In this document: positions 6,766-64,000 of the stretch, piece by piece
Layout of the letters: each line of letters opens with the position of its first letter
Numbering within the stretch: position 1 is the first letter of the stretch
NCBI GenBank assembly: GCA_949300365.1
Contig: CASGEC010000001.1
Span: 86,545 to 150,544 of the forward strand
DNA from: an uncultured Bacillota bacterium
GTDB lineage: Bacteria; Bacillota_I; Bacilli_A; RFN20; CAG-288
Direction: 5' to 3'
DNA length: 64,000 bases
Translations under genes and position numbers: made by a program
The notes under the pieces: generated by a model
Database searches by the model: none
Told to the model about the DNA's origin: nothing
The model's input: the letters and a program-made list of their open reading frames with translations, nothing else

Positions 6766-8052
6766 ATGGTTCATTATTCCAGACATGGGAGCGTCTTCGA
6801 GAGTCTGGATTACTCGGAGATCGACAAGAGGGGCGAGGAGGTCGCCCGCAAGATCCAACAGAAAACAGGCGAGGGAAACGACTTTTTGGGTTGGCTGGAC
6901 TATGCCAGCAAGCTTCCCGAGGAAGAGATCGAAAGGATCGTCGAGACGGCTAAGCACATCCGCGAGAACTACGAAGCGCTTGTAGTCATCGGCATCGGCG
7001 GCTCGTATCTCGGCGCAAGGGCCGTCATCGAGGCCATCAACGGCTTTTTCCCGGACGACAAGTTCGAGATCATCTATCTCGGCAACACGCTTTCCAGCAC
7101 CTATACCTATCAGGTCCTGAGACATCTCAAGGACAAGAGGATTGCCGTCAACGTCATTTCCAAGAGCGGAACGACGACCGAATCGGCCGTTGCCTTCCGT
7201 ATGGTCAAGGAGCGCCTGATCGAGCGTTTCGGCAAGGAATATCTCAAGGATGCCATCTATGCCACGACCGATGACACCCATGGTGCCCTTCATGCCGAGG
7301 CGAAGAAGGAAGGCTATACGACTTTCGTCATTCCCGACGATATCGGTGGCCGTTTCTCCGTCATCACACCGGTCGGCCTTCTTCCGATCGCCTGCGCCAA
7401 TATCGATATCCGCGAGTTCATCCGCGGTGTCCGTGCCGGCGAGAAGGCCTATTCCCTTTCGGACTACCACAAGAATCCAGCCTATCTCTATGGTGCGACG
7501 CGCTACCTTCTCTATTCCCAGAAGAAATTCTCGACCGAGATGTTCATTTCCTATGAGCTTCAGGACAAGATGATCGAGGAATGGCTCAAGCAGCTCTTCG
7601 ATGAGTCCGAAGGAAAGGACGGAAAGGCCCTTCTTTGCGCTTCCGGCGTCTTCACGACCGATCTTCATTCCATGGGCCAGTTCATCCAGCAGGGATCGCA
7701 CGTTCTCTTTGAGACCATCATCAAGGAAAAGCACCCGATTGCCGACCATATCGTCCCTTATGACGAGGAGAATCTCGACAACCTCAACTATCTTGCCGGA
7801 AAGAGGCTCTCCTACATCAATGACCAGGCCTTCCAAGCCACGCTCAAGGCCCATACCGAGGGCCATTCCCCGGCGAACGTCCTGGAAATCGAGAAGATGG
7901 ATCCCTACAACCTCGGCGATCTCTTCTACTTCTTCTTCCGGGCCACGGCCTTCTCGGCCTATCTTCTCGGCGTCAATCCCTTCAACCAGCCCGGTGTCGA
8001 GATCTATAAGAAGAACATGTTCAAGCTTCTTGGGAAACCGGGAGCCGAATGA
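6766..8052 (+). CDS. pgi: glucose-6-phosphate isomerase
   Basis: The ORF runs 6700-8052. GGAGGAG precedes the ATG at 6766. The Firmicutes-type PGI is about 430 aa, with phosphoglucose isomerase motifs (GIGGS...LG, SKSGTT). Confidence 0.9.
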   Translation: MVHYSRHGSVFESLDYSEIDKRGEEVARKIQQKTGEGNDFLGWLDYASKLPEEEIERIVETAKHIRENYEALVVIGIGGSYLGARAVIEAINGFFPDDKFEIIYLGNTLSSTYTYQVLRHLKDKRIAVNVISKSGTTTESAVAFRMVKERLIERFGKEYLKDAIYATTDDTHGALHAEAKKEGYTTFVIPDDIGGRFSVITPVGLLPIACANIDIREFIRGVRAGEKAYSLSDYHKNPAYLYGATRYLLYSQKKFSTEMFISYELQDKMIEEWLKQLFDESEGKDGKALLCASGVFTTDLHSMGQFIQQGSHVLFETIIKEKHPIADHIVPYDEENLDNLNYLAGKRLSYINDQAFQATLKAHTEGHSPANVLEIEKMDPYNLGDLFYFFFRATAFSAYLLGVNPFNQPGVEIYKKNMFKLLGKPGAE

Positions 8053-13667: not shown

Positions 13668-14249
13668 ATGGATTGGATCAATGTTTCTTTGACGTCCGTT
13701 TCGATGGCCGTCGATGCGATGACGGTCGGTGCCGTCGATGGCATCCAGGAAAGAAGGATGCCTCTGTGGAAGGTTCTGCTCATCAGCCTTCTTTTTGGCA
13801 TCATGCAGTTTCTCATGCCGACCATCGGCTATTTCGTCGGCTATTCCTTCCGGGATATCCTGGAAAGCTATATCCCGTGGATTGCCTTTGTTCTTCTGAC
13901 CCTCCTTTCCATCAAGTCCCTTGTCGACTTCATCAAGGACAGGAAGGCGAAGAAGGAAGAGAATCCGAAAGCGGAAGAGACGAGAAAGATCTCGATTCCG
14001 GAAATCCTTCTCCAAGGCGTGGCAACAAGCATCGATGCTTTGTGCATCGGCTTTGTCTATCTCAATCTGGAGATTCCCCAGGCGATGCTTGTCTTCGGCA
14101 TCATCGGCATCGTCACCTTTGCCCTTTCTTTCCTGACGACACTCTTCGGAAGCAAGGTCGCCGGCAAGCTTGAAAAATGGGCGGGTCTTATCTCCGCAAT
14201 CGTCTTCTTCGCCGTCGGCCTCAAGATCCTGCTTGAAGGCGTTCTCTAA
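13668..14249 (+). CDS. mntP: manganese efflux pump MntP family
   Basis: 193 aa. It has a duplicated 3-TM architecture and the MntP/DUF204 N-terminus (MDWINVSLTSVSMAVDAMTVGA). An AGGAG RBS is present. Confidence 0.8.
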   Translation: MDWINVSLTSVSMAVDAMTVGAVDGIQERRMPLWKVLLISLLFGIMQFLMPTIGYFVGYSFRDILESYIPWIAFVLLTLLSIKSLVDFIKDRKAKKEENPKAEETRKISIPEILLQGVATSIDALCIGFVYLNLEIPQAMLVFGIIGIVTFALSFLTTLFGSKVAGKLEKWAGLISAIVFFAVGLKILLEGVL

Positions 14250-14526
14250 AATTTGCTTGGCAAGGAAAAAGAAGAGAATTCCTATTGCTCAAGGCTAAAT
14301 TGTCTTAAAAATCCATGCCTGTTTTCCGAGGTTGGCTTTGGAAGCAGGGTTTATTGATGTCTCTTGTGAATAGGTGCCCGTCTTTCGTATATGAGACTTA
14401 CCGATTGACCTTCGATTGCACAACTCGAGATGGACTCGTTATCCTCCAGAAGGGGTCTTGGATGGTTCATTACGCGCCATTCCGAATACAGGTGCAAACG
14501 AACCCTATTTCGTAATATAGGTTGGG

Positions 14527-14700
14527 CTTCAACGATATCTCCATCAATAGAGATTGACCTTTCCTTGATCTCCTGCGGAGCAAAGGCGACTCCCAGATTG
14601 ATGCAGGCGTAAAACGCATTCTGGTTCTGATATGTCATCTGCCTAAAGGGTATTTGATGATGCCGGGGGTATTATGTTTATTGCGCGCCCTTTCCCACAT
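14527..14700 (-). pseudogene. remnant of a second SirTM-like SIR2 gene (3'-terminal fragment only)
   Basis: The translation MTYQNQNAFYACINLGVAFAPQEIKERSISIDGDIVE is about 60% identical to the C-terminus of the SirTM-like protein at 16207-17049 (QMTYRNLKAIYACVNNGEMYAPKEIADRSVCIDGDIGE). The rest of the gene is absent. Confidence 0.55.
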
Positions 14701-14702
14701 CT

Positions 14703-16030
14703 TTATTTCTCAAGGGATTTCGGGTCAAGCAGAAAATCATAGATGTTTATTGTCAGGATACCATATTCATCATACTGCGTTGGCACCATATCCCTGGTAA
14801 TGATGATTTTCTTGAAGGAATCATCGATCTTCCTGAATGGCCGGATCTCCTGCCATCCGTTTTGTTTCATCCGGCAGGGTGTAGGCGGATTGAATATAGT
14901 ATCTGGAAGAACCAAGATTACATACAAAATCAACTTCCAGCTGCTTACGTGTTACTTTTCCGTTCCGATCTTTTGCGGCGATGGGAACAACGCCTACATC
15001 GACATTGTAACCGCGCATGCGAAGCTCATTGTATATCACGTTTTCCATGGAATGGGTCTGTTCAAACTGACGAAAGGCGATTCTTGCATTCCGCAGTCCT
15101 AGATCCGAAAAGTAATATTTTTTGGGGGTTTCAATATAGGCTTTTCCCTTGATGTCATATCGCTGTGCAGACTCGATCAGGAAGGACTCCTCATAATAAT
15201 CCAAATACTTTTTGATGGTATTGGACGTTATTTTGGATTTCTTCACCGTTCGAAAAGTGTTTTTAAGTTTCTCCGGGTTAGTCAGAGAACCTATCGCAGA
15301 AGAAAGAATGTTCAGTAGATCCTCCAATTCGCCGATATTCTTGACATGATTCCACTGGACTATTTCCCGAATATATATTTCACGGAACAGGTTCTGCAAT
15401 GCCGCAAACTTTATCATTTGCCCCATCCCGCAGGACGACTAGGGGAATGCCACCATAGAGCATATATTCGGACAGTCCCACATACTTATCCCCTTTATAG
15501 ATAGACATGAATTCCGCAAAGCTCAGAGGATACATTGGAACTTCATCGCCACGGCCGGCAAACTCAGTGGCAATATCTTTGGATAGAAGCCTTGCATTGC
15601 TTCCTGTCACAAAGACATCCATATTATCTTTTCGCAGATAGCTGTTCAGGACAGCTTCAAAACAGTCCATCATCTGGATTTCATCCAGCAGCAAATAATA
15701 CATTCCATCGTCAACAGCTTTTGTTCGGACATAAGCCATGAATTTTTCCGGGTCTACGCCACGCTTTTCTTTTTCAATTCCAATAAGGCTTTCGCCGATC
15801 CGGTGCAGGTCGTCCGCTGAGTCGAAGGCAAAACGGATGATATGGCCAGCAGGAACGCCGCTCTTAAGTAGATGATAATAGAAAAGGTTGTTGAGCAGAT
15901 AGGATTTCCCACACCTGCGAATACCCGTAATGACCTTAATGAGTCCGTTGTTCTTTCTTTTTATCAGTTTGTCCAGATAGAAATCTCGGCGAATCTCCAT
16001 ACGGCTACCTCCTGCAAAAGACTTTTGCAA
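14703..16030 (-). pseudogene. DUF4143-containing AAA+ ATPase (COG1373-like), disrupted by at least two frameshifts
   Basis: Three consecutive ORFs in different frames (15380-16030, 14821-15426, 14703-14933) together cover an N-terminal P-loop (GIRRCGKSYLL) and the DUF4143 C-terminal region. They overlap at both junctions. Confidence 0.7.
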
Positions 16031-51725: not shown

Positions 51726-52283
51726 ATGAAAGATTTGAAGGGTACGCAGACAGAGAAGAATCTCCAGGCTGCCTTTGCCGGAGAGAGCCAGGCCCACACC
51801 AAGTATCGCTATTATTCCGAAGTCGCCACCAAGGAAGGCCACAAGGAATTCGCCGATCTCTTCCTCGAGACCGCCCTCAACGAGAGCGAACATGCCGAGC
51901 TGTGGTTCAAGTATCTCCACGGCGGATCCATCCCCACGACCGAGGTCAACCTCGAGGATGCCGCTGCCGGTGAGAACTATGAGCAGACCCAGATGTATCC
52001 GGAGTTTGCCAGAGTCGCCAGAGAGGAAGGCTTCCCAGAGATCGCTGCCAAGTTCGAACTCGTCGGCAAGATCGAGGCCCGTCACGAAGCCCGCTACAAG
52101 GCGCTTCTTGAAGCCCTGAAGACGGACAAGCTCACCATCAAGGAAGGCGTTGTCGTTGTCTTCAAGTGCCAGGTCTGCGGCCATATCCATGTCGGCAGCA
52201 CCGCTCCCAAGGTCTGCCCCGTCTGCGGCCACAAGAATACCTTCCTTCCCGAAACCCTCTACTACGATTGGAAGGCCGAATAA
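51726..52283 (+). CDS. rbr: rubrerythrin
   Basis: 185 aa. A ferritin-like di-iron domain (E..H pairs) plus a C-terminal rubredoxin-like CxxC...CxxC (CQVCGH...CPVCGH). Confidence 0.9.
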   Translation: MKDLKGTQTEKNLQAAFAGESQAHTKYRYYSEVATKEGHKEFADLFLETALNESEHAELWFKYLHGGSIPTTEVNLEDAAAGENYEQTQMYPEFARVAREEGFPEIAAKFELVGKIEARHEARYKALLEALKTDKLTIKEGVVVVFKCQVCGHIHVGSTAPKVCPVCGHKNTFLPETLYYDWKAE

Positions 52284-52555
52284 GCTTCATCCAAAGTCGA
52301 TTGACCGCTGGGAAACCAGCGGTTTTTCTTATGCCCTGAAAGAATGGAGAGGTATGGCAACAAAAGGAAAATCCCGGTTGTAAATAAAGCCCTTACAATA
52401 TTTGCCAAAATTTCTTAGGAAATGGAAATATAGCGATAAAAAAGGCAATTTACGCCTTTCTTGAATTGAAGTAAAAGTCTATTAACAAGCCGAAATGTAA
52501 GTGCTATCATAATTTCAGGTTCGCTTCTATTCCAATATCGCTAGGAGGAAAATCC

Positions 52556-53749
52556 ATGGAAAAGCAGAAGCAGTATCGAATCGGGACAGAAGAACAACAG
52601 GCCTATCTGAGGGACTATAATTTCCCTCCCAAAGGCTATGGCTTTTTGGAGCCTGGGGTCGTCACTCCCGATTCCAACGATTTTGTCGCCTTCCAAGTCG
52701 CCAAGTCGTTCTATCAGGTCTATCCGGAAGTCTTCAACCTCGCCTACATCGAGAAGAAGACGGGCATCAAGAAAGCCGAGATCAAGAAGAGACTTTCCAA
52801 GATGTACCGCGACCATGAGATCATGCTTGTCTACAATCCGGCCGTCTCGATCATGGGCTGGGGACTCTACTACTGGATTGTCAAGCTGAAAAAGACGGCG
52901 ACGAAGGAAGAGCGCGAGGAACTGACGAAATGGTTCCAGGACAACGACCAGATCTGCACCGGATACATGATGGAGGAAGGCGGGGACTTCGATTACTTCA
53001 ACGGGAACCACATGCGCAACCTCGACAACCTGATCGCCGGCGTGCTCGACAAGTTCCGGAACAAGGACTATATCGAATACGTCCATCTCTGCCCGATCCG
53101 CCGCTGCGTCCGCGAAAGCCATGTCAACCAGTTCGATAGCCGCAAGGATTACCGCCGCTATTGCTGGAGCGAGGAACAGAAGAAGAACGTCCTCAAGTTC
53201 CAGAAGAAGATGGACAAGGACGACTTCGCCATCATCGATGCCATCAACAATACCAAGAGCATCGGCGACATGTTCGACTATGACGTCCTTGCCAAGCTCT
53301 CCGGACTGGATGCCGCGGAGATGAAGCAAAACCTCTGCCGGGTTGTCGACAAGGAAAAGAGCATGCTTCCGATGATCTATTTCAACTATCGGGCCATCGG
53401 CTTGAAGATGCACTTCTTTGCGGTGACGCTCTTCCAGAACACGCCGACCTTCCGCGCCGAGCAGATCCTCGACGAATTGTGCGAGGAAGAGGCTTTCGAG
53501 AACATCTTCGATATCGGCGATGCCCATCACAACTATGTCTTAAGCGCCTATGAGGACATCACGGACATCGATGCCATTCGCAAGAAGATCCTCTCCTATG
53601 GCGAGGTCACGGAAGTCTTGGAGGCCACCTCTCCCAGACAGTTCCGGCGCTGGACATGTCGGCTAGACGAGCAGAACGGCTATTGGGAGGAATGCGTCTT
53701 CACCGACGACGTCCTCTTGGACAGGACGACGGAAAAGGAGGGCAAGTAG
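52556..53749 (+). CDS. hypothetical protein with tandem Lrp/AsnC-like (HTH + RAM) modules
   Basis: 397 aa. Two repeats each resemble an AsnC-type HTH followed by a RAM-type beta-alpha-beta-beta-alpha-beta domain (~res 60-190 and ~210-380), for example DFAIIDAINNTKSIGDMFDYDVLAKLSGLDAAEMKQNLCRVVDKE then IGLKMHFFAVTLFQNTP. The stop is 1 nt before the next ATG. Confidence 0.5.
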   Translation: MEKQKQYRIGTEEQQAYLRDYNFPPKGYGFLEPGVVTPDSNDFVAFQVAKSFYQVYPEVFNLAYIEKKTGIKKAEIKKRLSKMYRDHEIMLVYNPAVSIMGWGLYYWIVKLKKTATKEEREELTKWFQDNDQICTGYMMEEGGDFDYFNGNHMRNLDNLIAGVLDKFRNKDYIEYVHLCPIRRCVRESHVNQFDSRKDYRRYCWSEEQKKNVLKFQKKMDKDDFAIIDAINNTKSIGDMFDYDVLAKLSGLDAAEMKQNLCRVVDKEKSMLPMIYFNYRAIGLKMHFFAVTLFQNTPTFRAEQILDELCEEEAFENIFDIGDAHHNYVLSAYEDITDIDAIRKKILSYGEVTEVLEATSPRQFRRWTCRLDEQNGYWEECVFTDDVLLDRTTEKEGK

Positions 53750-53750
53750 G

Positions 53751-55151
53751 ATGAAAATCGAAAAGGCAAGACCATACGTCGTCAAGAACCTGAAATACGC
53801 GCTCAATCCTTCCTCCATCGCCGTCGTCGGGGCTTCCCGCTATCCGACCAAGGTCGGAAACAAGGTCATCTACGAATTGGTCAAGTGGGGCTACAAGGGA
53901 AAGATCTATCCGGTCAATCCGCGTGCGGATGAGGTCCTCGGCTTCAAGGCCTACCATACCCTGAGGGACATCAAGGACCCTGTCGATCTCGTCTTCGTCG
54001 CCGTTCCGGCGCATCTTGTCCGCTCCATCGTCGAGGATGCTGTCAGCATCAAGGCAAAGATGATGGTCATCGCCACCTCGGCCTTCAAGGAAATCGGAAG
54101 AGGAGAACTGCAGAACGACATCACCGAATATTGCCGGAAGAACGAACTGCCCCTCATCGGCCCCAACCTCGTCGGCATGGGCTCGCCCTATCAGCACTTC
54201 AACTGCGGCTTCATTCCCTATCTCCCTGTCCCGGGACCGGTTGCCATGATCTCCCAGTCGGGCGCCAATCTTCTAGCCGCACTTGGTACCAGCCAGATGA
54301 GTCACTTCGGCATGTCTTTCTTCGTCGGCTTGGGAAACAAGGCGGATGTCGATTTCTCCGAGTTCATCGAATATGCCAATGAAGATCCCAACACCAAATG
54401 CCTTGCCATCTATATCGAGGGACTGGATTCCCCGGAGGCCTTCGTCGATTCCTGTCGCAAGGTCAGCAAGCCGATCGTGGTCATCAAGGTCGGGCGTTCC
54501 AAGATCGGCGTGAAGGCAGCCTTCGCCCACACGGCAAGCGAGAACCCCAACAGCGATGCCTACTACGACAAGATCATCAAAGATGCCGGTGCCATCAGGG
54601 CAACGACGTGGCAGGAATTCCTCGACGTCTCTTTGGCCCTTGGCAATCAGCCTGCCTTGAATGGGGACAACATCGTCATGATCACAAACGGCGGCGGTGC
54701 TGGCCTTCTTAGCTGCGATCACTTCGAGCGTTTAGGCCTTTCTCTCCATGAACTGAAGGAGATCTCGCCGATGCTCGAGCAGAGAATCCGCGCCTATATG
54801 CCGATGTTCGGTTCCCCGCTCAACCCGGTCGATATCTCCGGAACGGCAAGCGTCATCCAGTATAAGGGCGCCTTCCAGCAGGCCTTCCGCGATCCCAATG
54901 TCCATGGCGTCCTCGGCGCTATCTGCCCGACGGCGGTCACCGATGTCCTTGGAACGGCCAAGGCTGCCATTGAGGTCTACGACTCCTGCAAGGAGCTTGG
55001 AAAGCCATTCATCATGATCTGCCAGGGCGGCGAGGAATGCCGTGAAGCCATCATGCTTTTAAGGGATCATGGAATCCCGGCCTATCCCACCGCGGAGCAG
55101 GCTGTCAATGCCATGGTTGCCCTCTATCGCTACGGGACGAGGAAGAAGTAG
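53751..55151 (+). CDS. CoA-binding protein, NDP-forming acyl-CoA synthetase alpha-subunit-like (ACD alpha / Pat N-domain-like), standalone
   Basis: 466 aa. A CoA-binding Rossmann fold (SIAVVGASRYPTKVGNKV...IYPVNP) and a Succ-CoA-ligase-like domain (MISQSGANL, the conserved-His region). No ATP-grasp beta subunit is encoded nearby. Confidence 0.65.
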   Translation: MKIEKARPYVVKNLKYALNPSSIAVVGASRYPTKVGNKVIYELVKWGYKGKIYPVNPRADEVLGFKAYHTLRDIKDPVDLVFVAVPAHLVRSIVEDAVSIKAKMMVIATSAFKEIGRGELQNDITEYCRKNELPLIGPNLVGMGSPYQHFNCGFIPYLPVPGPVAMISQSGANLLAALGTSQMSHFGMSFFVGLGNKADVDFSEFIEYANEDPNTKCLAIYIEGLDSPEAFVDSCRKVSKPIVVIKVGRSKIGVKAAFAHTASENPNSDAYYDKIIKDAGAIRATTWQEFLDVSLALGNQPALNGDNIVMITNGGGAGLLSCDHFERLGLSLHELKEISPMLEQRIRAYMPMFGSPLNPVDISGTASVIQYKGAFQQAFRDPNVHGVLGAICPTAVTDVLGTAKAAIEVYDSCKELGKPFIMICQGGEECREAIMLLRDHGIPAYPTAEQAVNAMVALYRYGTRKK

Positions 55152-55421
55152 TCTTTCCCTTTGAAAAATTGGGCCTTCGTATCCTTTCCGCCAAAGGGTA
55201 TGAGGGCCTTTTTGCGTGGGCTATAGGGGCTTGTGCTTTTTTCCTTGAAAGGGGTTGTTTTTCTCTCCGGGAAGAGGTCTTTTGGGGGTAAGGAAAGGCG
55301 GTTTTTGGTTCCTTTGTTGTAGACGAGCTTGGCTGAAAGTTTTGTCATAATCGGCTATACTGTTAACATAAACCATGCAAAAAGGCAATTCTGTTCGTCG
55401 TTTTGGGAAGGGGAAGGCGCC

Positions 55422-61816: not shown

Positions 61817-62098
61817 AGGGCTGTACCTCCGTGTACTTTGCAAAAAACGGGTCCCCGGAATGAGGACCCGCACTATGCACACGATACGCATAAGCCGATT
61901 GACGGACAAACTATAATCGGCTTAGGGATCAGGCATTTGACCTACCGGAACGGAATCCAGTCAGGTGGGACGGGCGTCCTCTTTCCTATCTCGTTTCAAG
62001 CAAATAGCACTATACCCTTTTGAAGGACGGATGTCAAGAAAAGATAGTCGATTCTTGAAGAGAAATTGTCAGGATGGTAGAATAGACCCGCTTTGTCC

Positions 62099-62171
62099 GG
62101 GCTTATAGCTCAGTTGGGAGAGCGCTTCCTTCACACGGAAGAGGTCAGTGGTCCGATCCCGCTTAAGCCCA
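62099..62171 (+). tRNA. tRNA-Val (anticodon CAC)
   Basis: GGGCTTA/TAAGCCC acceptor stem, anticodon loop TTCACAC, CCA encoded. The T-loop reads TCCGATC (C at position 55), which is atypical. Confidence 0.7.
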
Positions 62172-62294
62172 CCATATTAGAACGACATGTCTGATACAAA
62201 CCTAGTCGATGACTAGGGGCGGTTCAGACTTTTTTTGTTTTAGGCTTAAATAGCGACTTTTAAACTTACGCCGTTGTAACTGCCTAAAGAACTC

Positions 62295-62699
62295 ATGAGA
62301 GTTTTATCTGACTTAAAATATGTCGAACAAATGGGTTATGGAGTGCCTGAAGTTTTAAAGCACTATGATAAGAATGTATTTGATATTGAAGAAAGCTATA
62401 TAAATGTTTCCATACCATATGATGCAGAAGTAATGGCTTCTATGCGTGTTACTAACCTTGGTGCAGAAAATGGTGCAGAAAAGGGTGCAGATAATAATTC
62501 AGAAGAAAATATTATACGAGAGTTAAAAATTAATCCTAAAGTAACAAGAAAAGAATTATCATTAAAACTTCAAATTGGCACAACTTCCGTTTATAGAATT
62601 TTAAATGGATTAAAAGAGAAGAAAAAAATCAAACGTGTTGGTCCTGATAAAGGTGGACATTGGGAAATCGTAGGCAGGGATGAACAATCCGAGAAATAA
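62295..62699 (+). pseudogene. C-terminal fragment of a COG2865-type (AAA_4 / Schlafen-like AlbA_2 + winged-helix) putative regulator, in an AT-rich island
   Basis: The 134 aa product (YGVPEVLKHYD..., KVTRKELSLKLQIGTTSVYRILNGLKEKKKIKRVGPDKGGHWEIV) matches only the last ~130 aa of ~450 aa COG2865 proteins. The local GC content is far below the window average. Confidence 0.45.
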
Positions 62700-63013
62700 T
62701 TTTTAATTTGGAGACAACAATGTTTTTAACTGATTCAATAGATTTAGAAATTTTAAACCCTATATATTTATTGTTTTGGAATAGCTGGAATTGTTTTTTA
62801 TTTACTTTTGATTATTTTAGCTATCATTTTTTATAGAAAAAACATTGTTGAGCATACCGGACAGGCTTTTTGATTCCAATCAATGCTTTTGATGCTCAAA
62901 ATAATACTCTTAGACGACGTGTATGTAACGGATTGGAGGTGACACGACTGTGCCACCTCCCAAAGGTCCTTGTCCGTTTTCGTTCCGGCTTTGTTTCTAT
63001 TGGGTGGAAATCA

Positions 63014-63361
63014 TCAATCCTGTTCCAGGGATACCTTCACACCTTCGATATCGATTGTCCATTCTCCGGACACATCGGGATCATCTGATTCCCTGGCGTA
63101 TTCCCGCAAGGCCTCGGCAATTTTGCTCTTGAGACGGCTATAGACGTTTGAGGCCTCTCTGCGGAAGGCTTCCTTGATGAAGGAATCGGCATTGGTGTAG
63201 TAGAAAACAATCGTGCCACTGACATATACCGTATTGGGGTGGAAGTAGACCCGGACGTCGGGAAATTGGAGACGGGGATCTTTTCCATAGGACCAGCTTC
63301 CCAAATAGACATTTTCCAATGCCTCCATTACGGCATAACGAACGCCAAAACTATCAGCCAT
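63014..63361 (-). CDS. hypothetical protein
   Basis: 115 aa with good codon usage and an AT-rich promoter-like upstream region. No family recognised. Confidence 0.4.
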   Translation of the reverse strand: MADSFGVRYAVMEALENVYLGSWSYGKDPRLQFPDVRVYFHPNTVYVSGTIVFYYTNADSFIKEAFRREASNVYSRLKSKIAEALREYARESDDPDVSGEWTIDIEGVKVSLEQD

Positions 63362-63599
63362 AGTGAAATCCTCCTTTTTTCATTATGAAAGGAGAGTGAA
63401 AACAAGACAATTTAAATGTTTGGAAAACAGGCAAAAAGAGGAAAAATAAAGTTAACAGAATTGAAATGAAGTCAAGAAAACAGGAAAAGGATTAATTAGG
63501 AACCTGTATTCCAAAAGACAAACTGATGTCGGCTTTTCCAGCTCATGACAAAGCATCCTCCAAAAGGAAGTGTGGTAGAATAGCGATGGGGTAAAGAGA

Positions 63600-63995
63600 A
63601 TGCTATTCCTTTCTGAGAATGTGGATATCGCTTTGCTTACGAATACCCTTGTCTATACCTTTGGCATCGCCGGGATTGTCCTTCCCGTGCTTCTTTTTGT
63701 CTTGATGGTTGTCTTTGTCGTCAAGAAAGTCGGTCCGAATCCCTTTTTCGGATTCCGAACCCGCTTTGCCTTGTCCTCTCCGGAAAGATGGAATTGGTGC
63801 AATGGACAGCTTGCCAAGTTCACCTTCCTTTTTGAACCCTTCTTCCTTGTCGTCCACATCATCGTCTTTTCCTTGACCCTTGTCTATTCCTGGCCTTTCT
63901 TCGGTGTGATCCTGACGATGATCTTCGGTGTCTTGTGGATGCTTCCTGTTTGCATCTCTATCCAGGTAGTCGGAAAGAAGAAGTTCAAGGACTGA
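63600..63995 (+). CDS. SdpI/YhfL-family membrane protein
   Basis: 131 aa with 4 transmembrane helices and the family signature GPNPFFGFRTRFALSSPERW. Confidence 0.65.
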   Translation: MLFLSENVDIALLTNTLVYTFGIAGIVLPVLLFVLMVVFVVKKVGPNPFFGFRTRFALSSPERWNWCNGQLAKFTFLFEPFFLVVHIIVFSLTLVYSWPFFGVILTMIFGVLWMLPVCISIQVVGKKKFKD

Positions 63996-64000
63996 TTGTT

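Follow-up and report, generated by a model that had tools for sequence, protein, structure and literature searches.

Two adjoining genes of an uncultured Bacillota bacterium, here called A and B, may encode the two subunits of a single self-contained enzyme of the superfamily of NDP (nucleoside diphosphate)-forming acyl-CoA (coenzyme A) synthetases (ACD), in which the product of A would replace the ATP-grasp subunit and the reaction would possibly yield pyrophosphate (PPi); a probability of roughly 0.4 is assigned to this composite reading. The genes lie in a 64,000-nucleotide stretch of assembly GCA_949300365.1 (contig CASGEC010000001.1, positions 86,545–150,544; hereafter the window), with A at 52556–53749 (397 amino acids, aa) and B at 53751–55151 (466 aa), both on the forward strand, to which all coordinates within the two genes refer. 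Protein A is a pseudo-dimeric protein of the Lrp/AsnC fold with two repeats of a helix-turn-helix (HTH) and a RAM-like domain, and protein B is a subunit of the alpha type in the synthetase superfamily, with domains 1, 2, and 5. The pairing of A with B is far beyond chance: at least 43 dereplicated lineages retain it, with flanking genes that differ between them. The catalytic motifs of B are intact.

Conservation and coupling of the A–B pair

When one genome per species was scanned, 78 A loci came up; three of these were cut by contig ends and one (L086, with B present and A aligning only partly) was set aside, leaving 74 that were assessable. Carriers belonged to the Bacillota (Erysipelotrichia, Clostridia, and Negativicutes), Actinomycetota, Chloroflexota, Bacteroidota, Deltaproteobacteria, and Acidobacteriota. 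In 73 of the 74 assessable species-representative genomes, a count that includes one deletion remnant (L089), B was located directly 3′ of A and in the same orientation; the sole exception was a locus with a truncated A. The spacing between the stop codon of A and the start codon of B was −4 to +2 nt in most loci (62/73), and a Shine-Dalgarno (SD)-like sequence was present ahead of B, inside A, in nearly all of the orthologous loci (70/73). In the window, the TAG stop codon of A (53747–53749) and the ATG of B are 1 nt apart, and the SD sequence AAGGAGG (53735–53741) lies inside the 3′ end of A. The closest genome locus to the window (L018) is 96% identical for A and for B alike. A first-pass annotation of the window had put the two proteins forward as partners encoded 1 nt apart; both open reading frames (ORFs) are where it placed them, and the pair holds together, translationally coupled, across the genomes surveyed.

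Two decayed copies were observed. At L089 (6001–6746), residues 5–180 of A are joined straight to residues 391–466 of B by a large internal deletion, and at L087 (6001–6903) a truncated A stands with no B. Apparent A–B fusions proved to be artefacts of tblastn reading across the stop codon. The cassette was not found on plasmids, and an unannotated 6 kb record from human faeces labelled ‘Bacteriophage sp.’ (GenBank MT837909.1), which carries an A homologue at positions 1703–2851 (55% identical across 97% of the query), is probably bacterial sequence entered as phage in error.

For the converse test, metagenome contigs were anchored on the histidine loop of B, which gave 107 B-type loci, 14 of them cut by contig ends. 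A adjoined B upstream in 72 of the 93 assessable loci and was missing from 21, mostly members of one lineage (median 94% identity among themselves and ~63% to the B of the window). Overall, A is essentially never intact without B, and B-type proteins can lack an adjacent A. The A-less sister clade of B (L193, 1992–11393, and ~20 similar metagenome loci, e.g., L101, L106, L165, L187, and L194) is flanked by a type I glyceraldehyde-3-phosphate dehydrogenase (GAPDH) and, on the other side, by an unannotated 366 aa protein with two transmembrane segments and a 500 aa Usp-domain protein. This context (HydE, Ldh_2, type I GAPDH, the membrane protein, the Usp-domain protein, and a SCIFF maturase) was considered as a functional system and rejected as housekeeping synteny within the same lineage, and the 366 aa neighbour resembles neither A nor an ATP-grasp protein.

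No ATP-grasp beta or GNAT gene was found adjacent to the pair in ~190 related loci, nor was an ATP-grasp or GNAT gene encoded between about −13 kb and +6 kb of A–B in the window, in agreement with the first-pass annotation. The Pfam annotation of eight related loci contained no ATP-grasp, and no third gene was recurrent in ~150 loci except a sigma-54 enhancer-binding protein (EBP) and a pyrophosphatase (PPase).

Domains and conservation of the two proteins

As judged from its sequence, B is the alpha subunit of an NDP-forming acyl-CoA synthetase, with the CoA site, the phosphate-binding helices, and the phosphohistidine intact. It matches Pfam CoA_binding_2 (E = 3.5e-26), Succ_CoA_lig (E = 4.3e-39), and Ligase_CoA_2 (E = 3.7e-20), all well above the cut-offs, and its best solved relative is the alpha subunit of ACD1 from Ca. 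Korarchaeum cryptofilum (4XYL_A, E = 1.5e-92, aligned over residues 13–463). With ACD1 (alpha2beta2; 4XYL/4XYM; EC 6.2.1.13), B shares domains 1, 2, and 5 in an end-to-end alignment in which the phosphohistidine, the CoA-binding loop, and the tips of both phosphate-binding helices are matched, whereas the partner in ACD1 is an ATP-grasp beta subunit (domains 3 and 4) and the operon partner of B is the Lrp/AsnC-fold protein A. The CoA-binding Rossmann domain of B (residues 22–139; 53814–54167) carries a GASRYPTKVG motif, the flavodoxin-like domain (residues 161–295; 54231–54635) the SQSGA phosphate-binding helix tip and the histidine loop KAAFAHTASEN, and the Ligase_CoA_2 domain (residues 308–462; 54672–55136) the NGGGAG helix tip, NPVD, and a family-specific CQGGEEC. 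The conserved elements are SQSGA (168–172), NGGGAG (313–318), GPNLVG (137–142), GLGNKAD (193–199), and NPVD (358–361); in the ACD structure 8WZU, the phosphate-binding tips of the power helices and the neighbouring loops are G163-A164, G310-G311, P128-C130, G187-K189, and V354-D356 (PMC11494057). His260 (AFAHTAS; codon 54528–54530) is invariant across all B orthologues examined and aligns with the histidine of AASHTGS (4XYL), ASSHTGS (2CSU), and AMSHTGA (8WZU), the last being H256, the phosphohistidine of active ACDs (PMC11494057).

The clade of B is marked by the invariant loop KAAFAHTASEN, in place of the canonical ACD histidine loop AASSHTGSxAG, and by NFNCGFIPYLP and CQGGxEC. Extra conserved cysteines, missing from the canonical ACD alpha sequences aligned, are Cys152 (NCGF), Cys322 (SCDH), and Cys424 and Cys430 (CQGGEEC), of which Cys322 adjoins a phosphate-binding helix. 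Against the NCBIfam model for acetate-CoA ligase alpha subunits (TIGR02717), B scores 430.8 bits, below the curated cut-off of 567.15; with this sub-threshold family score and no adjacent ATP-grasp gene, the pair appears to fall outside the canonical ACD holoenzymes. B is 76% identical between the window and C. botulinum and 65–96% across six phyla.

Two identities had been offered for B in the first-pass annotation, an ACD alpha subunit or the N-terminal domain of Pat, and it is the former that was retained. Pat/PatZ (9IT0/9ISQ) has the same domain 1-2-5 core as B (E = 4.7e-43) and is a case of an ACD-alpha-like module used without ATP synthesis, but its catalytic histidine is lost (‘LLNTTAG’) and a GNAT domain is fused to it, whereas B retains His260 and lacks a GNAT domain. 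Since the catalytic histidine is kept, B seems to resemble active synthetases and not the Pat N-terminal domain.

Protein A had no significant match in Pfam or NCBIfam. Searches with the Pfam HTH_AsnC-type/HTH_24 and AsnC_trans_reg models returned nothing at E ≤ 1, divergent relatives giving sub-threshold matches only, and a profile search of PDB sequences reached the Lrp/AsnC protein PH1519 at only E ~1. An AlphaFold2 model (predicted local distance difference test, pLDDT, 85; predicted template modelling score, pTM, 0.83), which rests on 26 homologues, consists of two repeats, each with a three-helix HTH ahead of a beta-alpha-beta-beta-alpha-beta unit. When the model was compared with the PDB using Foldseek, the top match was NirDL (4CZC, ~11% identity), and the NirDL structures 4CZC and 4CH7 span both halves of A (341–345 aligned columns; E = 7e-9 and 2e-8), followed by ~30 single-module Lrp/AsnC regulators (E = 2.5e-4 to 2e-2), each spanning one half. 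The tandem HTH-plus-RAM fold proposed at first pass is therefore borne out by the model and the Foldseek matches, although Pfam alone is blind to it. In an HMMER scan of 1.84 billion representative sequences, the A family was small and discrete (78 representatives), with canonical tandem AsnC-type proteins at its outer edge (E ~2e-4).

In each half, A has the HTH-plus-RAM fold of Lrp/AsnC regulators (such as PH1519/FL11, NMB0573, E. coli Lrp, and AsnC), with whose RAM core it shares the GDFDF strand motif. Unlike these regulators, A is a 397 aa tandem fusion below the Pfam thresholds, is translationally coupled to an enzyme, is far more conserved, and in several lineages has an external sigma-54 regulator. 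The tandem or heterodimeric arrangement of NirDL (4CZC/4CH7) and AhbA/AhbB (4CZD), in which a transcription-factor fold is used as an enzyme, is the same as that of A, but A is set apart by additional conserved segments at its N- and C-termini and by its coupling to a CoA enzyme.

Among 74 orthologues, 63 positions of A reach a conservation of 97% or more, with Arg, His, or Asp at many of them, and nearly half of these positions (31/63) sit in the first RAM-like domain (residues 87–195; 52814–53140), the most conserved part of the protein, which carries the motifs ICTGY, GDFDF/GDFDY, GNHMR (residues 150–154; 53003–53017; invariant in the B-coupled subfamily), and HLCPIRRxVRE with P180-R182-R183-R186. 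The second RAM-like domain (residues 268–378; 53357–53689) holds a RQFRRW motif at 361–366, and arginines 364, 365, and 369 are invariant. The first HTH (residues 41–86; 52676–52813) has model helices at 41–52, 62–69, and 73–85 and a weak alignment to PH1519, and the second (residues 221–267; 53216–53356) is placed by the model, with a weak winged-helix match at 217–266. Read as a pattern of sequence conservation, A is enzyme-like.

Both termini of A are conserved and poorly ordered in the model. The N-terminal segment (residues 1–40; 52556–52675), a candidate partner-binding segment, has pLDDT <50 at residues 27–36, with G27, E32, P33, G34, and D39 near-invariant, and the acidic tail FTDDxLxDRT (residues 379–397; 53690–53746) has pLDDT <50 at residues 381–397 in the monomer model. 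The tail motif is present in 61 of 73 A orthologues and missing from the A-like proteins of types 2 and 3, and is thus specific to the B-coupled subfamily. Termini that are conserved yet disordered are the pattern expected of segments that fold upon a partner, as those of A may do. Many orthologues (L001, L003, L005, and L007) run beyond the FTDDxLQDRT tail into a short Cys-rich segment (e.g., VICPNCKD, YTCPFSCS, or VRCCNSV), which could be a small metal-binding or redox element; there is none in the protein A of the window.

Recurrent neighbours, the proposed reaction, and its alternatives

In an unbiased clustering of all flanking ORFs from 43 dereplicated lineages, only two specific neighbours recurred around A–B, the sigma-54 EBP and an H+/Na+-PPase. 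The EBP (~655 aa; sensor-PAS-AAA+-HTH_8) is located directly 5′ of A on the same strand in 9 of the 43 lineages, and a −24/−12 element (TGGYA-N7-TTGCW) stands 80–370 nt ahead of A in 11 of the 14 EBP-bearing loci (background, 0.045 per kb). In these genomes a dedicated activator has A–B as its target, which makes A less likely to be the transcription factor of the operon. The EBP (L067–L071, L073, L074, L080, L082, L085, L086, L088, L090, and L092; also L011, 1530–2963) is DhaR/PrdR-like with an unassigned N-terminal sensor domain, and the inducer that it senses would reveal the pathway to which A–B belongs. The A–B operon is not mentioned in the main text or supplement of a published sigma-54 regulon reconstruction for the Clostridiales.

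A membrane-integral H+/Na+-PPase (Pfam H_PPase, E down to 3e-287) is the next gene 3′ of B, on the same strand, in eight loci, corresponding to 7 of 57 dereplicated assessable lineages and one locus with short flanks. Among the carriers are Syntrophomonas wolfei subsp. methylbutyratica, metagenome-assembled genomes (MAGs) of a Peptococcaceae and a Bacteroidales member, Anaerovorax odorimutans, an uncultured Clostridium, and two metagenome contigs; a Sedimentibacter locus retains a PPase fragment. These PPases fall into at least three clades and are 28–50% identical to one another, so that the juxtaposition with B arose more than once; by a rough estimate, the chance of a given single-copy gene being the immediate neighbour is a few per ten thousand genomes. 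A hexapeptide-repeat acetyltransferase-like gene (family judged from sequence only) was also seen in five lineages at variable positions, and its recurrence is regarded as chance.

The neighbours of distant relatives of A are informative too. P0246, a divergent member, overlaps an ACD-alpha-like gene by 4 nt. P0250, P0252, P0256, and P0257 sit in a recurring ‘type 2’ cluster (L014, 3086–11549; L015, 2–7964; L009, 2726–10940; partial in L012 and L010) that encodes a membrane-anchored A-like paralogue (619 aa, with a weak energy-coupling factor S-component/CD3073-like N-terminus), a radical SAM/SPASM enzyme (best weak matches AhbD, PqqE, NirJ2, and AhbC, with scores far below the cut-offs), an acyl carrier protein (ACP), phosphotransacetylase (Pta), holo-ACP synthase (AcpS), a soluble A-like protein, acetate kinase (Ack), and a second, degenerate Ack-like (kinase-like) gene; the cluster looks like an undescribed ACP-linked system that generates acyl-phosphate. 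P0248 (A-like, 429 aa; L017, 354–7942) overlaps a glutamate-dehydrogenase-like gene by 4 nt, which is followed by two PPDK_N proteins (phosphoenolpyruvate/pyruvate-binding, ATP-grasp-type), one of them fused to a nucleotidyltransferase domain. Pta and Ack carry out the same chemistry as ACD, from acyl-thioester through acyl-phosphate to phosphoryl transfer, by unrelated folds, and PPDK_N is the domain in which phosphohistidine chemistry meets orthophosphate (Pi) and PPi. With such chemistry beside A-like genes, the common denominator of these proteins is their closeness to acyl-phosphate or phosphohistidine enzymes.

In canonical ACDs, the histidine loop ferries phosphate to the ATP-grasp beta subunit, where ADP is converted to ATP. 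In the enzyme proposed here, homology and intact motifs suggest that ‘site I’ of B is complete and would bind CoA and the acyl group, and that B would interconvert acyl-CoA and phosphate with acid, CoA, and a phosphoryl group that would pass from an acyl-phosphate to His260 of a mobile loop. A would dock on B via its conserved, disordered N- and C-terminal segments, and the conserved Arg/Lys/His-rich cavity of its first RAM-like domain (K110, H152, R154, R182, R183, and R186; R364, R365, and R369) would serve as a second site that receives or gates the phosphoryl group. The preferred acceptor may be orthophosphate in place of ADP, giving PPi, and an acceptor of this kind needs no nucleotide-binding fold; the PPi would then feed an ion-pumping membrane PPase or PPi-dependent glycolytic enzymes, as the gene neighbourhoods suggest. 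A nucleotide-independent, PPi-forming acyl-CoA synthetase (acyl-CoA + 2 Pi ↔ acid + CoA + PPi) is a tentative proposal that is judged somewhat unlikely, though it would explain the PPase neighbours. The formation of PPi from acyl-CoA is thermodynamically favourable (thioester, approximately −32 to −36 kJ/mol; PPi, approximately −20 kJ/mol).

The transfer of a phosphoryl group to orthophosphate to give PPi has functional analogies in the Pi/PPi half-reaction of pyruvate phosphate dikinase (PPDK) and in the PPi-forming acetate kinase of Entamoeba histolytica, whose formation of PPi from acetyl phosphate and Pi is known chemistry (EC 2.7.2.12, as cited in PMC8863071). The folds of these enzymes are unrelated to A–B, for which the PPi reaction is deduced solely from the PPase neighbourhoods. 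No description was found in the literature of the A–B pair, of orphan ACD alpha subunits, or of a Pi/PPi-linked acyl-CoA synthetase, and the PPi reaction, if confirmed, would be a new enzyme activity.

Several observations weigh against the proposed two-subunit enzyme or its PPi chemistry. The A-less sister clade of B keeps the same histidine loop (KAAFAHTASEN) and CQGGxEC, so B-type proteins have no strict need of an adjacent A; an ATP-grasp beta subunit may be encoded elsewhere in the genome, the searches having covered gene neighbourhoods; and no natural A–B fusion occurs among the 78 A-family representatives. The PPase is a neighbour in only 5–7 lineages (~12–16%), and neither it nor a sigma-54 activator was found in the 64 kb of the window. 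The spacers between B and the PPase carry hairpins, with a secG-like ORF in between at L085, and no sigma-54 promoter was found in them, so that B and the PPase may not be co-transcribed. Within A, His152 and His177 are not kept in P0246, the most divergent B-coupled member, and the two HTH motifs retain basic third helices compatible with DNA binding.

The alternative that survives best, though it is judged unlikely, is that B is an ordinary ADP/GDP-forming synthetase alpha subunit with an unlinked ATP-grasp beta subunit, and that A is a non-catalytic accessory subunit that tunes B allosterically in response to an amino acid or other small ligand sensed by its RAM domains, as the first-pass annotation had suggested in outline. 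The alpha and beta genes of the Pyrococcus furiosus enzyme are likewise unlinked, amino acids are ligands of Lrp/AsnC RAM domains (2P6T, 2EFQ, and 9W4W are among the Foldseek matches), and many carriers are amino-acid fermenters; the existence of a sister clade of B without A and the overlap of a distant A-like gene with a glutamate-dehydrogenase-like gene are consistent with such a sensor. However, B falls below the acetate-CoA ligase alpha cut-off, its invariant loop is unlike the Gly/Ser-rich canonical loop, no beta gene occurs in the ~190 neighbourhoods, and the PPase neighbours and the Pta/Ack and PPDK_N contexts are left unexplained. Taken with the sigma-54 activator, these contexts seem to point towards phosphoryl/pyrophosphate chemistry more than towards amino-acid sensing.

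It is distinctly improbable that A is a ligand-responsive Lrp/AsnC-type transcription factor of its own operon, with B merely the regulated enzyme and no complex between them. Such a role would fit the Lrp/AsnC fold with its two HTH motifs and their basic third helices (AEIKKRLSKMYRD), the position of A as the first gene of the unit, and the name ‘AsnC family transcriptional regulator’ given to orthologues by some sources. Against it, the coupling at −4 to +2 nt and the internal SD sequence are kept across phyla, which implies stoichiometric co-production of the two proteins, and the sequence of A, never intact without B, is conserved to a degree unusual for a regulator. Upstream of A, no operator-like motif was conserved across five lineages (shared k-mers were AT-rich only), and in nine lineages a separate sigma-54 activator and promoter are present. 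Further, A paralogues are fused to multi-pass membrane domains or stand mid-operon between AcpS and AckA, and the tandem architecture is the same as that of the enzymes NirDL and AhbA/B. That A is a physical partner of B, and not a classical transcription factor, is considered somewhat more probable than not.

A cofactor-independent decarboxylase of the AhbA/B–NirDL type, acting on a tetrapyrrole or other polycarboxylate with B handling the CoA ester in the same pathway, is very improbable for A, since, for all that NirDL is its best structural match, that conserved Arg and His lie on its RAM-domain strands, and that distant type 2 paralogues stand beside a radical SAM/SPASM enzyme with weak AhbD, NirJ2, and AhbC matches, its identity to NirDL is low, the HxYxR motif in the beta-sheet domain by which the sirohaem decarboxylase AhbA/B–NirD/L/G/H family is defined (PMC4145669) occurs in 0 of 77 A-family sequences, and no ahbC, ahbD, nirJ, or other haem or sirohaem synthesis gene was found in any A–B neighbourhood. 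The structural likeness to these enzymes drawn at first pass therefore stands, and a role for A as a sirohaem decarboxylase was rejected.

The transcription unit in the window and its implications

With its own promoter-like site and flanking terminator-like hairpins, A–B is predicted to be a self-contained bicistronic unit. A sigma-70-type promoter-like site (TTAACA-17-TATCAT with an extended −10 TG; 10/12 matches, a consensus match only) is located 5′ of A at 52482–52510 (+), and a strong intrinsic-terminator-like hairpin (17-bp stem, then a T-run) at 55171–55209 (+) closes the unit 3′ of B. The upstream limit is a terminator-like hairpin (9-bp stem with six GC pairs, then a T-run) at 52303–52324 (+), 3′ of a rubrerythrin gene (51726–52283). 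The adjacency of rubrerythrin to A, noted in the first-pass annotation, is real in the window but incidental, with the hairpin and the promoter-like site lying between the genes; a linkage was rejected, as rubrerythrin belongs to a separate transcription unit and does not recur beside A in other genomes. No Rfam riboswitch or leader RNA was matched 5′ of A in the window or in five related loci.

The other neighbours between about −13 kb and +6 kb are an AddAB-type helicase-nuclease, two ABC exporters, a LacI regulator, EzrA, a class V aminotransferase, ThiI, and ribosomal protein L20. The G+C content of the window (mean ~0.52) dips to 0.40 at 62001–64000 and to 0.45 at 14001–16000. At L003, a locus of the Eubacterium saphenum type, a raiA RNA motif (RF03072, 120.5 bits; 7491–7644) lies 5′ of a ribosome hibernation factor gene and is unrelated to A–B.

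The lineages that carry A–B (at least 43) are anaerobes of the gut, mouth, rumen, and sediments, including relatives of Clostridium botulinum group II, Dielma, Holdemania, Mogibacterium, Eggerthellaceae, and Syntrophomonas. The current labels of the two proteins, ‘AsnC family regulator’ and ‘acetate-CoA ligase family protein’, mislead metabolic reconstructions of these organisms. To our knowledge, members of the ACD/succinyl-CoA synthetase superfamily combine five domains in shuffled order, always with an ATP-grasp module among them, and a catalytically intact alpha subunit joined to a protein with a transcription-factor fold would, if the proposed enzyme is real, solve the second half-reaction in a new way. 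After the sirohaem decarboxylase, it would be only the second known case of an Lrp/AsnC fold as part of an enzyme.

If the PPi chemistry holds as well, A–B would add a fourth route between acyl-CoA and free acid; a recent preprint counts only three routes by which acetate and acetyl-CoA are interconverted (PMC13404658). The source of catabolic PPi in anaerobes with PPi-dependent glycolysis is unsettled in C. thermocellum (PMC8863071), a species that is not among the genomes found with the A–B pair. Were the PPi reading true, A–B would be a concrete candidate for such a source, supplying stoichiometric catabolic PPi to ion-pumping pyrophosphatases, PPi-phosphofructokinase, and PPDK in fermentative and syntrophic anaerobes.

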